Positions 11,265-51,107 of a DNA stretch of 64,000 bases are shown here, piece after piece (within the stretch, counting starts at the first letter, position 1; every line of letters begins with the position of its first letter). Both the position numbers and the translations under genes were made by a program. Origin of the DNA: an uncultured virus (IMG/VR IMGVR_UViG_3300032220_001634) (lineage: Duplodnaviria > Heunggongvirae > Uroviricota > Caudoviricetes); IMG/VR virus record IMGVR_UViG_3300032220_001634, one strand, 5' to 3'. The notes beneath the pieces are model-generated. The model ran no database searches. It was given only the letters and a program-made list of their open reading frames with translations, and had not been told where the DNA came from.

Positions 11265-13202
11265 TTATTTAACCCCTAATTTTTTCTGTATTTCCTCTCT
11301 ATTATCATGATATAGTCCAAGATCTTTTTGGAAATCCTCGAATGACTCTTCCTGAGTGTTATAAACTTTGCCTGTTACTGTACCTAAAAATTGCATCGCC
11401 CTTCCTGCAGCATCTTTAGTTTTATCGTCATATTGACCGTCCTTAAAATCCCCACCTGACAAATAGGAAAGATTTTTTAATTTATTTTGGAATTCAGTAA
11501 TAGCTTCTTTATCTTTATCTGTTGGATTGGTAGGGAATGTTTTATATTTCTTTTTTCCCTTACCTATAAGACTAGGTAGTTTCTTTTCTTCCTTACTTAC
11601 GCCTCTAAAAGCATCCATAGCTTTTTTTAATTGGGTCGTAGCTTCGTTACCTTTTGCTCTTTTCTGTAGATACTTCCTATCAGTAATAGAAGCTAAAAGC
11701 TCATCTGCTTTCTTCATAAGATCTATACCTTGTGAAAGATTTCCTGCTGCTACCACTGATTCTCTTCCCTTCCCCATCACAGAATCTTTCCACTGAGCAA
11801 GAACACCACCAGGTCTTACTATAACCCCAAGTTTTTTAGAGATTTCATCAAGCTTAGATTTCACCTTTGAGATGGTTCCTGATTTAATCTCATTTTGAAT
11901 ATTCATCAGATATTTAAAAGACTCCCTGGTAAAATCTATGATTTCGGAAGCAGATTCTTTAGCATCTTTTTTAACCCCTTCGCTGCCAGCTTCACCTGTA
12001 ACATTTTCTTGATATCCTATAACATTATCAATCTCACTTGCTAATGCCATTATAGAGCCTTTAAGATTTTCTGCAGCTGTTAACAGTGATCCTGCAGTTA
12101 GTTCGGATTTTTCGTCTTTCCCAAAAACTGTTTGATCTGCTAATCCTTTTATACCAGCACCAACATTGCTTATAAACTCTCTTCCTCTGTTAAGGAAACC
12201 TCCAAAGTTTTCAACGAAAACATCAGATTCTTTTACTCCACCTATTGTCACCTTAGGAGCTTCGCTTTTACCAAGCTTAGATTCTAAATCAGTGTCCTCT
12301 TTTTCCCCCTTCTTTTTATACTTATCTTCCTCTTTTTTTAATCTCTCCTCTGCTTGGTCTTCTGTTGATTTAATTTGTCTTTCTCCTTTAACTATAGATT
12401 CAATAGAGTCAGCTACAACTTCAAAATAATCTCTTTTAAGTTTAGCATCATCGTTCTTCTCGATTCTTTCTAGTTCTTTAATACCACCGGCCTTAAAATT
12501 AGATACCGCTTTATATAAAAGATTAGAAGCCTGTGAATATTGCCCAATATTAACTATTTCCAAACTGTTAGTTGCATCTAATGCTTCCTCTTTTGCTGCG
12601 TTAATTTCTTCTGTATATTCCTCTTGAGTTATCTCTCCTCTGTCAAGTTTTTCTTTAAGATCTTTAGCTATCTCTTTTACTTTCCGTATAACTGGATTTT
12701 CTCCCATTATTTTAGGAGCTTCCTTGTTCATAGAATCCGCAAGTGTTTCTATTTTTTCCCATGCCTCAGTAGCTCCTTCGTAAGAAGGATCAACTTTTAT
12801 ATTTCTAATTATCTTATTGTAATCATTAATAAGATCTTGTTTTTTTACGTCGTTTTGACTTATAGATATAGCTATAGCCAAAAGCTTGTCTAATGCGCTT
12901 AAAGCGTATGTAAAATAAGTTATATGACCAGTTGCAGCATGCTTAGCTGCGTCCATTTTAGGACTGTTCATATTTTCTTTATATTTAACTCCCCCCTTTC
13001 TTTTTGACTGTTTAGGTTCTACCTCTAAATCACCTAGCTCGTCAGAGGCATCCCCTTCGGGTGAGCTCATATCGTCCGATGGGATTTCTTTATCTTTACT
13101 ATCTATGTCACCAAGATCCCCGTCGTCTTCCATTATACTTGGTGAAACGATGGCTCCTTTATTAAAGAAAGATTTGAATTTTAAAACTTTAGATTCCTTC
13201 AT
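11265..13202 (-). CDS. Lys/Glu-rich probable virion protein with C-terminal peptidoglycan-binding-like domain
   Basis: Helical, charged sequence; C-terminal FQNKLKNL...DGQYDDKT. Confidence 0.5.
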   Translation of the reverse strand: MKESKVLKFKSFFNKGAIVSPSIMEDDGDLGDIDSKDKEIPSDDMSSPEGDASDELGDLEVEPKQSKRKGGVKYKENMNSPKMDAAKHAATGHITYFTYALSALDKLLAIAISISQNDVKKQDLINDYNKIIRNIKVDPSYEGATEAWEKIETLADSMNKEAPKIMGENPVIRKVKEIAKDLKEKLDRGEITQEEYTEEINAAKEEALDATNSLEIVNIGQYSQASNLLYKAVSNFKAGGIKELERIEKNDDAKLKRDYFEVVADSIESIVKGERQIKSTEDQAEERLKKEEDKYKKKGEKEDTDLESKLGKSEAPKVTIGGVKESDVFVENFGGFLNRGREFISNVGAGIKGLADQTVFGKDEKSELTAGSLLTAAENLKGSIMALASEIDNVIGYQENVTGEAGSEGVKKDAKESASEIIDFTRESFKYLMNIQNEIKSGTISKVKSKLDEISKKLGVIVRPGGVLAQWKDSVMGKGRESVVAAGNLSQGIDLMKKADELLASITDRKYLQKRAKGNEATTQLKKAMDAFRGVSKEEKKLPSLIGKGKKKYKTFPTNPTDKDKEAITEFQNKLKNLSYLSGGDFKDGQYDDKTKDAAGRAMQFLGTVTGKVYNTQEESFEDFQKDLGLYHDNREEIQKKLGVK

Positions 13203-45118: not shown

Positions 45119-45213
45119 CGGGAATAGGGGGAATCGAACCCTCCGTCACGTCCATGTTCCTTGCTATAAAAGCGAAGTACTGAGGATTGCTCTAAACACT
45201 GAGCTACATTCCC
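45119..45213 (-). ncRNA. tRNA-like RNA with enlarged anticodon arm
   Basis: Normal acceptor, D and T arms; ~38-nt anticodon domain. Confidence 0.65.
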
Positions 45214-45893: not shown

Positions 45894-45942
45894 TCGGACG
45901 TTTCGAACCGTCCAGACTCAGGGTAATTAGTCATGAGTCCTG

Positions 45943-46015
45943 TTGCGAGGGAGGGATTCGAACCCCCGACCTCCGGGTTATGAGCCCGGCCAGATACCGC
46001 TTCTAACACCTCGCA
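45943..46015 (-). tRNA. tRNA-Met(CAT), initiator type
   Basis: CCGGG-CTCATAA-CCCGG with three G-C pairs next to the loop. Confidence 0.88.
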
Positions 46016-46017
46016 AT

Positions 46018-46566
46018 CTATATTTTAATGTGACTCCATCTTTTTTCAGACTTTATCATCGCTACTGTTGTTTTCGTAACATTTTCAAAAAGATTAGCTA
46101 TTTTTTGATAGCTTAATTTTCCCTCTTTTAGATGTCTTTTAATCTCAATAACAGTATTCTCTGTTATCTTACTTCTTCCGTTTTTCTCTCCCGTTAATCT
46201 AATCCCAACTCTACCTTCTGCCCTTTTACTTAATATTTTTTTTGTTTCCTCAGAATGAGATTTCCCCTTAAATCCGTTACTTCCCTCTCCTCCTGCAGTA
46301 CCATTTAGAATATTAAATCCCCAAGACTTTAATTGTGATATCCAATATGATTCTCTAAAAGACCAATCGGATTCATCTACAGTTTCTAATATTTCCATCT
46401 TTGGCATTTGTCCAGATTTCAAAAGATCGTGTATCCATATTTCCTTTTGGGTTCTTCTTTTTTTAGATTCCTTAAGGTGTATTTTAAATCTTTTTTCCGG
46501 GTTATTAGATTTTCCAACGTATCTAATCCCTTCCGAGTCAGATAAAATATAAATATAAGTTTCCAT
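46018..46566 (-). mobile_element. Free-standing GIY-YIG homing endonuclease with NUMOD3 motif
   Basis: YIYIL...RYVGKS..PEKRF..H, E..WI, NGTAGGEG, GKSHSEETKK. Confidence 0.88.
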
Positions 46567-49626: not shown

Positions 49627-49632
49627 AGTTTG

Positions 49633-49706
49633 TGGACCCGACAGGACTTGAACCTGTGACCCTCTGATTATGAGTCAGACGCTCTAACCAACTGAGCTAC
49701 GGGTCC
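49633..49706 (-). tRNA. tRNA-CAT (Ile2 or elongator Met)
   Basis: TCTGA-CTCATAA-TCAGA; GGACCC acceptor resembles Ile2. Confidence 0.85.
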
Positions 49707-50671: not shown

Positions 50672-50743
50672 TAGCGAGTGAGAGTTCCGAGATCCCGTCC
50701 TTCCGGATATGAGCCGGATGCTCTTCCTCTGAGCTAACTCGCT
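50672..50743 (-). tRNA. tRNA-Met(CAT), atypical T-loop
   Basis: TCCGG-CTCATAT-CCGGA; T arm GGGATCTCGGAACTCTC. Confidence 0.8.
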
Positions 50744-50820: not shown

Positions 50821-50826
50821 TTATTG

Positions 50827-50898
50827 CTGTGACGGAGAATTACGATATCTCGACCCCCTGATTAACAGTCAGGTGCTCTGCCTCTGAGCTACGTCACA
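50827..50898 (-). tRNA. tRNA-Asn(GTT), atypical T-loop
   Basis: CCTGA-CTGTTAA-TCAGG; T arm GAGATATCGTAATTCTC. Confidence 0.87.
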
Positions 50899-50903
50899 AT
50901 GTT

Positions 50904-50983
50904 TGGTTGGCAGAATGGGATTCGAACCCATATGTAACCAGTTAACCTTTCTACCACGTATCAGGCGGAGGGTATATCTGCCA
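50904..50983 (-). tRNA. Non-canonical D-armless tRNA-Ile(GAT)-like RNA with encoded CCA
   Basis: TGGCAGA/TCTGCCA-A-CCA acceptor, ATGGG-TTCGAAT-CCCAT T arm, CCGC-CTGATAC-GTGG arm, no D arm. Confidence 0.65.
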
Positions 50984-51036
50984 ATGTGCTTTGCATATTG
51001 TGAGCATTACACTTTGCAAATTTCAAAGAACTTTAG

Positions 51037-51107
51037 TTGTCCCTGGAGGATTCGAACCTCCACAATCAGAATCAAAATCTGACGTCCTGCCATTAGACGA
51101 AGGGACA
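51037..51107 (-). tRNA. tRNA-Gln(TTG)
   Basis: TCAGA-TTTTGAT-TCTGA. Confidence 0.9.

Follow-up and report, generated by a model that had tools for sequence, protein, structure and literature searches.

A transfer RNA (tRNA)-like element was analyzed that lies on the minus strand of a 64,000-nucleotide stretch of DNA from an uncultured virus (IMG/VR record IMGVR_UViG_3300032220_001634); this whole stretch is referred to below as the window. The RNA is read from position 50983 to position 50904, and the coordinates and strand given in an initial annotation were right. That annotation had described the element as a D-armless RNA of the tRNA-Ile(GAU) type. The results presented here suggest that it belongs to a family of phage tRNAs in which the parts of a D arm are present in a different order.

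Parts of the element and the surrounding tRNA array

The 5' strand of the acceptor stem, UGGCAGA (RNA positions 1–7, 50977–50983), forms seven of seven Watson-Crick pairs with 50908–50914. The 3' part (50904–50914) consists of the strand UCUGCCA, a discriminator A (50907) and an encoded CCA (50904–50906), and the element has in this respect the end of a canonical tRNA, as had been noted initially. In the family alignment discussed below (A4, 131 unique members, for which 7/7 acceptor pairs were required) the acceptor cells were 100% paired, and all seven pairs covaried. The T arm AUGGG/UUCGAAU/CCCAU (50915–50931), placed by Rfam alignment, was also canonical, in agreement with the initial annotation: four of its five stem pairs covary, and the equivalents of G53, T54, psi55, C56, A58 and C61 are invariant in the family.

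The acceptor strand is followed by a U8-A9 connector (50975–50976), in which U8 is tentatively assigned by likeness to canonical tRNA. Both T8 and A9 were set in every scan pattern; the lack of variation at these two positions among the 131 aligned members follows from this and carries no weight as evidence. The next segment, UACC (positions 10–13, 50971–50974), is one strand of a D-stem equivalent; topologically it corresponds to the canonical 22–25 strand, and its partner is GGUU at 50944–50947. It leads into C14 and the anticodon arm, U15 to U31 (50953–50970), which according to the Rfam alignment has the stem CCGC/GUGG and the loop CUGAUAC, and in which 4/4 stem pairs covary. This hairpin begins 8 nt past the acceptor stem, as previously read, and is canonical in form, with four Watson-Crick or G-U pairs, a U-U closing position, and a 7-nt loop that holds the anticodon GAU (50960–50962) together with U33 and A37. 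The same CUGAUAC loop is found in the canonical tRNA-Ile of the relatives L004–L006.

The anticodon hairpin CCGC-CUGAUAC-GUGG is directly followed by UAGAAAGG. Between the anticodon stem and the D-stem equivalent lies a linker or bulge, A32 G33 A34 A35 A36 (50948–50952), which may supply the analogues of positions 44/45 and a bridge of three A's. GAAAGG was set in the scan patterns, and its invariance is again by construction; position 32 is U, not A, in phage A3Wally and in LR756500.1. GGUU (positions 37–40, 50944–50947) is the second strand of the D-stem equivalent and corresponds to the canonical 10–13 strand; its U39 covaries with position 11. Between GGUU and the T arm the RNA of the window has AACUGGUUACA and then U. 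The first of these is a D-loop-like segment (A-A-C-U-G-G-U-U-A-C-A, 50933–50943), with equivalents of A14, R15, Y16, Y17, G18, G19 and U20 and, at its end, of A21. Its GG is at least 90% conserved, the final A, which the patterns left free, is invariant, and the first A was set in every pattern. The U that follows (U52, 50932) is the equivalent of Y48 and the partner of A42 (the R15 equivalent, 50942), and covariation was observed at both positions.

A small hairpin, TAAC-UG-GUUA, had been proposed for the same segment. Its loop would be only 2 nt long, and its positions show no covariation in the family alignments; the hairpin was rejected, and the segment reads as D-loop-like sequence.

Standard tools hardly recognize the element. 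The Rfam tRNA model (RF00005) gave 29.4 bits at 50907–50983, only just passing the gathering score of 29, and in this alignment 15 D-arm positions were deleted and 18 nt were inserted ahead of the T arm; no local D hairpin is present. Of the other 27 Rfam tRNA matches in the window, 25 scored 44–77 bits, and an aberrant site at 45119–45213 scored 35.2 bits. ARAGORN made no call at the element, and its single-sequence fold was not significant (z = −1.11).

The element lies in a tRNA array on the minus strand (about 45.0 to 54.2 kb of the window) that comprises 25 ARAGORN calls and three further sites found by Rfam only, namely a CAU tRNA at 50672–50743, a 95-nt aberrant tRNA at 45119–45213 and the element itself (50907–50983). 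Its neighbors, both called by ARAGORN on the minus strand, are tRNA-Gln(UUG) upstream (51036–51107), separated by a 52-nt spacer, and tRNA-Asn(GUU) downstream (50826–50898), which starts 5 nt past the CCA. A TTGAAA-18-CACAAT site occurs in the 52-nt spacer, yet the frequency of such promoter-like sites was like that in shuffled sequences (2 versus 1.9 expected). The initial annotation stated that the canonical tRNAs of the window cover 19 amino acids and that a canonical Ile(GAU) is not among them, and this was confirmed by ARAGORN and Rfam. In 25 long open reading frames (ORFs) of the window AUU and AUC together amount to 37.8 per 1000 codons, which was counted in favor of a functional tRNA. 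The G+C content of the window is 36.5%, and its proteins match phage families weakly only.

Other sites of the array were also unusual. There are three CAU tRNAs in the window (45942–46015, 49632–49706 and, by Rfam only, 50672–50743), one of which may be of the AUA-reading Ile2 type; ATA occurs at 35.3 per 1000 codons in the long ORFs. The gene at 50672–50743 (minus strand, Rfam 49.2 bits) has a mismatched, atypical T arm, and the T arm of the tRNA-Asn at 50826–50898 is similarly odd. The 95-nt gene at 45119–45213 (minus strand) lies between tRNA-Glu and tRNA-Ser and has canonical acceptor, D and T arms, with 39 nt in place of the 17-nt anticodon arm; the Rfam score was 35.2 bits, as given above, and ARAGORN made no call. 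The extra length may stem from an insertion, from an intron or from a longer anticodon arm. An ORF at 46018–46566 (minus strand) within the array matches homing-endonuclease families (phrog_314, E = 4e-9).

A family with a permuted core

Nucleotide searches with the locus itself detected no relatives. A megablast search with 801 nt of the locus against 50,697 phage records gave no match, a distant blastn search with 1,101 nt gave scattered tRNA matches only and no syntenic relative, and exact or near-exact patterns in IMG/VR (a 38-mer, and a pattern of anticodon arm plus T arm) were each found in 0 stretches. Relatives were reached through proteins encoded within the tRNA array, which led to IMG/VR contigs of 40–435 kb with partly syntenic tRNA arrays. 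The closest of these (L003, 62% protein identity) has a canonical tRNA-Ile(GAU) between tRNA-Gln and tRNA-Asn, i.e. in the slot of the element. Another relative, L007, lacks a canonical Ile(GAU) and has an element of the same kind directly after tRNA-Arg(ACG), the slot that canonical Ile(GAU) occupies in L004–L006. Compared with the window element, it shows compensatory changes in the acceptor and anticodon stems and a nearly identical core.

Motif scans of IMG/VR found 12 stretches with a strict core pattern, 98 stretches with the pattern TATACCCT-N15-TAGAAAGG, and, among the matches listed, more than 117 stretches with a variant pattern in which position 11 is not A. Ten of the 65 unique matches to TATACCCT-N15-TAGAAAGG were chance matches with no acceptor or T arm, and were dropped. 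A scan of one genome per GTDB species gave 13 stretches, all on contigs of metagenome-assembled genomes, of which 11 parse as members. Taken together, the motif scans of public phage and metagenome sequences yielded more than 200 stretches. From the matches listed, 139 unique members were pooled, leaving out those with fewer than six acceptor pairs. Two members with UUGAAAGG fall outside the search patterns.

Among deposited phages, blastn located the element in 40 records of Streptomyces phages (including Jay2Jay, NootNoot, Peebs and Samisti12), and there were further matches in three Microbacterium phage records and in one 462-kb uncultured phage. No annotation is present at the site in 38 of the 40 Streptomyces phage records, and the two EGole records label it 'tRNA-Leu'. 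ARAGORN called 0 of the 139 native members, which bears out the expectation that tRNA scanners would miss such genes.

A covariance model (R1) was built from 55 members, with the architecture acceptor, U-A, N-N-C-C-C-U, anticodon hairpin, U-N-GAAAGG-N-U-A, D-loop motif, Y48 and T arm, and was applied to 17 sources. The window element scored 92.6 bits (50907–50983) and the members 83–96 bits, and every canonical tRNA in the 17 sources scored at most 30 bits. Exactly one member was found in each of ten element-carrying loci, and none in L001–L006. The model also recognized the A3Wally element (Arg type, unannotated) and that of the 462-kb phage (Ile type) as full members with 84–87 bits. Carriers are thus found among freshwater jumbo phages, the 462-kb uncultured phage, and cultured Streptomyces and Microbacterium phages.

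Several carriers have further features of note near these genes. One contig (L022, also L125) has two tandem permuted tRNAs 13 nt apart (462–538 and 552–628), one an Ile(GAU) with the A-U form of pair 11–39 and the other an Ile(UAU) with the C-G form. In Jay2Jay (NC_029098.1, L118) the unannotated permuted tRNA (about 75237–75316) occupies the gap between gene 110 ('nucleotidyltransferase'), which it directly follows, and an FtsK-like gene, away from most of the 44 annotated tRNAs of this phage. An HNH endonuclease gene adjoins the permuted tRNA of A3Wally.

The family alignment gave a strong covariation signal. In A4, 99.0% of the cells were in standard pairs, and the covariation score was 0.903, compared with 0.210 in shuffles (0/500 reached the observed value) and 0.12–0.14 when the partners were slid by 1–3 columns. 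Pairs changed on both sides were found at 7/7 positions of the acceptor, 4/4 of the anticodon stem and 4/5 of the T stem, and an earlier 55-member alignment gave the same picture. Within segments 10–13 and 37–40, positions 11–13 pair with 37–39. In a scan that left positions 39–40 free, pair 11–39 was Watson-Crick in 139/139 members, with all four types represented (C-G 73, A-U 57, U-A 8, G-C 1). RNAalifold predicted the D-stem-equivalent helix independently. Its alternative fold contains the pairs C14-G33 and U15-A32, with U31 and AAA bulged, giving 4+2+4 stacked layers; a canonical tRNA has, by our own count, a stack of 5+1+4 layers.

Covariation also links the base that follows A41 to the one directly preceding the T stem (A-U 90, G-C 37, other 12; n = 139), and the corresponding counts in A4 were A-U 85, G-C 35, U-G 2 and other 9 (n = 131). 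In sequence terms this is the pattern of the R15-Y48 Levitt pair. Taken as a comparison of sequences, the covariation indicates that the element is neither a chance sequence nor a pseudogene.

The order of the core segments can be related to that of a cloverleaf by a single block. The segment after GGUU, A-R-Y-Y-G-G-U-N..A, is a D-loop consensus (A14, R15, G18 G19, A21). GGUU stands to it as the 5' D-stem strand does, and UACC-C enters the anticodon stem like canonical 22–25 plus 26. A script was used to transpose one block, which starts at position 37 and ends just ahead of the Y48 equivalent, to the junction between positions 9 and 10; no nucleotides were gained or lost. ARAGORN, which recognized none of the native sequences (0/139), called 139/139 of the transposed sequences, all with the original anticodon. 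When a random block of the same length was moved, 6/139 were called, and with shifted block boundaries or a shifted insertion point between 3 and 98 of 139; ending the block 3 nt earlier also gave 139/139, its effect being a longer variable loop only. The gene therefore corresponds to a cloverleaf with the 10–21 segment transposed to the variable-loop position, for which a circularly permuted D/anticodon domain would be an equivalent description.

According to these comparisons the term D-armless does not apply to the element. The initial statement that there is no D arm holds insofar as a local D hairpin is absent; equivalents of the D stem and D loop appear to be kept, with their order changed.

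In the structure of yeast tRNA-Phe, the three new joins (9 to 22, 45 to 10 via three A's, and 21 to 48) link neighbors in the folded core. In the coaxial D/anticodon stack the 39–43 strand is followed in space by 10–13, so that the chain becomes continuous. Since the new joins connect spatial neighbors, an L-shaped fold is plausible. The arrangement is likely to have originated by tandem duplication of the D/anticodon domain followed by trimming.

Anticodons, identity elements and replacement of canonical genes

The anticodons of the 139 members were UAU (84), GAU (34), ACG (14), UCU (3), and CAU, UCG, CCU and UAC (one each). Targeted scans with the core motif fixed gave 0 stretches in IMG/VR when position 35 of the anticodon was required to be G or U, and 19 stretches in metagenomes for AA, AC, CA or CC at positions 35–36, of which one was a further member, Val(UAC), and 18 were chance matches. 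Since these scans were empty but for Val(UAC), Ile, Arg and rare Val appear to be the only isotypes of the family, as far as sequences with the core motif used in the searches are concerned. U33, a purine at 37 and a 7-nt anticodon loop are kept in the family, and an encoded CCA is present in 27/139 members.

Two positions outside the anticodon change with it. At position 20, which directly follows GG, all 19 Arg-type members have A, and 117 of the 118 Ile-type members have U. The discriminator is a purine (A or G) in 17/19 members of the Arg type, and A in 115/118 of the Ile type. In a compilation of identity elements (PMC9976931), the bacterial Arg set comprises A20, C35, U/G36 and A/G73, with A20 as the main determinant for arginyl-tRNA synthetase (ArgRS), and the Ile set of E. 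coli comprises A73, C4-G69, U12-A23, U/D20, C29-G41, G34-A35-U36, A37, A38 and G16. As judged from sequence, position 20 and the discriminator of each anticodon type match these sets. In the permuted numbering the window element has the equivalents of A73, C4-G69, U12-A23, U20, C29-G41, GAU and A37; it has C instead of A at 38 and C instead of G at 16, relative to an E. coli set that may differ from that of the isoleucyl-tRNA synthetase (IleRS) of the phage host. The use of several anticodons per amino acid (GAU, UAU and CAU; ACG, UCU, UCG and CCU) would fit codon-specific decoding.

The gene content of the arrays suggested a replacement of canonical genes. Among loci with an Ile(GAU)-type element, canonical Ile(GAU) was found in 0/7 contigs, and is also absent from the window, and canonical Arg(ACG) was found in 6/7. 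Among Arg(ACG)-type loci, canonical Arg(ACG) was found in 0/5 and canonical Ile(GAU) in 4/5. Four relatives without a permuted gene have both canonical tRNAs. In the complete genome of one relative (G002, 373,485 bp; direct terminal repeats, CheckV 100% complete), a single member is located in a Gln-[element]-Asn slot, as in the window; 33 tRNAs were called by ARAGORN, covering the other 19 amino acids and including no Ile(GAU). Judging from these inventories, the permuted gene takes the place of the missing canonical isoacceptor in tRNA arrays, although not universally.

Unusual tRNA-like genes were also seen elsewhere in the relatives. tRNAs with the anticodon UUA, which would read the stop codon TAA, are present in L003 (10942–11014) and L007 (11706–11780); ARAGORN labels them 'tRNA-Stop', and the L007 copy scores 64.7 bits by Rfam. 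Two further sites were noted in L007: a tRNA-like stretch of 56 nt (12283–12338, Rfam 31.2 bits) in which the acceptor, D and anticodon (CAU) arms are present and the T arm is missing, and nearby (12102–12174) a weak match to the Y-RNA-like YrlA (28.2 bits, threshold 69). A Ro-like RNA-binding protein is encoded by Jay2Jay. A transfer-messenger RNA (tmRNA) gene with the tag ANEYAVAA is present just upstream of a Trp-Gln tRNA pair in L002 (8827–9181), and Jay2Jay also has a tmRNA.

Interpretation and alternative explanations

The covariation, the block-permutation relation to the cloverleaf, the identity elements that track the anticodon, and the substitution for canonical genes together suggest, with a probability of about 0.7, that the phage encodes in this element a functional elongator tRNA-Ile(GAU) whose core is block-permuted. 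It would share the transcript of the tRNA array on the minus strand and mature in the same way as the tRNAs next to it. After U8-A9 the chain would enter UACC, normally the 3' half of the D stem, and then the anticodon arm. A UAGAAA linker would lead to GGUU, normally the 5' half of the D stem, which would pair back with UACC and be followed by a normal D-loop sequence (A14, R15, G18 G19, U20, A21), the Y48 partner for R15, and the T arm. The D-stem equivalent would still be stacked on the anticodon stem, and the D-loop GG would be within reach of the T loop, so that an L shape is plausible on this count as well. The tRNA would be charged by host IleRS and would decode AUU and AUC codons, and the mature RNA probably retains the permuted order. 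The working decoder with a novel architecture that was initially proposed is strongly supported by these comparisons (conservation with covariation in every helix, identity elements, substitution, and the failure of standard annotation to detect it); the label D-armless was wrong, and the three-dimensional fold, processing, aminoacylation and ribosomal decoding are deduced from sequence comparison.

Several observations weigh against this reading. Core motifs were set in the search patterns, so that invariance is partly by construction and diverged members or other isotypes may escape; in particular, pairs 12–38 and 13–37 were set by the patterns and lie outside the covariation test. Five of the seven Ile-type contigs share an identical element, and the substitution counts are therefore not independent. 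Jay2Jay has canonical Ile(GAU) and Ile(UAU) in addition to its permuted Ile(GAU), which is why substitution is not universal. In G002, ARAGORN calls a 'tRNA-Ile(AAU)' at 303477–303551 (L265), 15 kb outside the array; its anticodon stem consists mostly of G-U pairs and mismatches and its loop is atypical, and it is probably not a real Ile decoder. We know of no bacterial system in which EF-Tu and the ribosome use a tRNA of such connectivity. Since recognition by IleRS and by ArgRS depends on the anticodon, its conservation would be expected as well if the RNA were charged and played no part on the ribosome. A search of sequencing runs found DNA of the window in freshwater metagenomes, and RNA runs with only 0.05–0.08 of the sampled words; the bin 50933–50969 had a depth of 0 in three RNA runs and one DNA run, which says nothing either way. 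In DNA run X2 the contigs stop at 50900 and resume at 50982, from which no conclusion was drawn.

The element could be a tRNA-shaped RNA that is charged by IleRS without being a decoder. It might donate its amino acid to a reaction off the ribosome, or it might be a decoy or sink that draws off a host enzyme or defence nuclease acting on tRNA-Ile or tRNA-Arg. tRNA-dependent non-ribosomal chemistry has been reported in phages (PMC13219725). The conservation of the anticodon, A20 and the discriminator meets the needs of IleRS and ArgRS recognition with or without decoding (PMC9976931). A restriction to Ile, Arg and rare Val is not explained by a general decoding advantage, and in Jay2Jay a canonical Ile(GAU) occurs beside the permuted one. 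Against a charging role alone, there are several anticodons per amino acid, and UAU, found in 84/139 members, would be a poor choice if only charging mattered; U33, purine 37 and the 7-nt loop are retained; and the element replaces a missing canonical isoacceptor in arrays and in one complete genome. We therefore consider a charged non-decoding RNA unlikely; decoding is favored both by the range of anticodons, with UAU foremost, and by the pattern of substitution.

Three further explanations have a much lower probability. The borderline Rfam score (29.4 versus 29), the lack of an ARAGORN call, the fold z-score of −1.11 and the presence of canonical Ile(GAU) in the same slot of relatives would be compatible with a decayed, functionless tRNA-Ile pseudogene that had lost its D arm by deletion and gained an insertion in the variable region. 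This was rejected on the grounds of family-wide covariation and conserved architecture: 139 unique sequences from unrelated phages share one architecture with compensatory changes in every helix, the model of the relatives gives 92.6 bits, and the identity elements track the anticodon, making decay extremely improbable. That the transcript of a permuted gene is cut and religated to a canonical cloverleaf, as in the red alga Cyanidioschyzon merolae, might be supposed from the single block move that restores a cloverleaf in 139/139, and from the RNA ligase and polynucleotide kinase in some carrier phages (Jay2Jay annotation). Three internal breakpoints would be needed, though the 5' and 3' ends are already in their normal places; no conserved flanking processing motif was seen in the family alignments, and the encoded order already forms a continuous stacked helix with covariation, so religation is very improbable. 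We give similarly little credence to the idea that the tRNA-like structure serves some other purpose, for instance as a signal for processing of a polycistronic tRNA transcript or as an integration site. The position between tRNAs would suit it, as would the ability of an acceptor plus T-arm minihelix alone to direct RNase P and CCA-adding enzymes; such a role would leave unexplained the anticodon loops limited to three amino acids, the A20/U20 that tracks the anticodon, the R15-Y48-type covariation and the covarying anticodon stem.

The block-permuted tRNA-Ile(GAU) proposed here was compared with known kinds of tRNA. It shares with canonical tRNA-Ile(GAU) of RF00005 the 7-bp acceptor, A73, the CCA end, the T arm with its GTUCRA loop, the CUGAUAC loop, the D-stem and D-loop elements including GG, and the slot of a canonical tRNA-Ile in a syntenic array. 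It differs in having the 10–21 segment after the anticodon arm, and in having neither a D hairpin nor an ordinary variable loop; all features of a cloverleaf are present except the D hairpin, so the element is not a canonical RF00005-type cloverleaf.

D-armless mitochondrial tRNAs, such as metazoan tRNA-Ser(AGY) and Ascaris tRNA-Ser(UCU), work despite non-cloverleaf genes, and have a short replacement connector, lost D-loop elements, a flexible structure and adapted mitochondrial factors, as described in a 2020 review on non-canonical tRNAs (PMC7609411). Like these, the element has no local D hairpin between the acceptor and anticodon stems. Unlike them, it occurs in phages of bacteria and keeps a covarying D-stem equivalent, with pair 11–39 in four Watson-Crick types, the D-loop motif A-R-Y-Y-G-G..A and a full-size T arm, and it is thus not of the mitochondrial type. 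In the permuted tRNA genes of C. merolae, the segment order also differs from that of the cloverleaf, with the 3' half ahead of the 5' half and a circular intermediate that leads to a canonical tRNA (PMC3978253); the element has its 5' and 3' ends where a canonical tRNA has them and differs by the shift of an internal block alone, which sets it apart from the C. merolae type. tRNA-Sec, tRNA-Pyl and allo-tRNAs, with 8/4 or 9/3 acceptor/T stems, are further natural tRNAs that depart from the 7/5 cloverleaf, are active and are often mis-annotated; these alter helix lengths and keep the arm order (PMC7609411).

No phage-borne or permuted tRNA is described in the text of the same review, in which the strings 'phage' and 'permut' have 0 occurrences. 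Rfam 15 has no dedicated family for a permuted phage tRNA, and no description of one was found in the open full-text literature, also searched with motif strings (subscription journals and supplements being outside its scope). We rate the permuted phage tRNA as a new structural variant of tRNA that is widespread in phages and missed by standard annotation. The family is present in cultured, non-pathogenic phage-host pairs (Jay2Jay with Streptomyces lividans, A3Wally with Microbacterium foliorum) and is thus open to bench work.

To our knowledge, all bacterial-type translation uses tRNAs with one fixed arm order. We lean, by a modest degree, towards the broader view that many phage lineages carry an unrecognized class of working tRNAs with a circularly permuted D/anticodon domain. 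Such tRNAs would be L-shaped, would receive Ile, Arg or, rarely, Val from class Ia synthetases of the host, and would be used for decoding on bacterial ribosomes. As a speculation, selection may have favored the rewired core as a means of escape from a host enzyme or defence nuclease that recognizes the canonical backbone of D arm and variable loop. Because standard annotation misses the permuted genes, phage tRNA repertoires, and arguments on codon usage based on them, are incomplete. If the proposed structure is true, the L shape tolerates another path of the backbone, with the core rewired while the residues of the tertiary contacts stay; this would bear on tRNA evolution, on recognition by synthetases, EF-Tu and the ribosome, and on the design of orthogonal tRNAs. 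That the family is limited to Ile, Arg and Val may point to a conflict between host and phage over these tRNAs.

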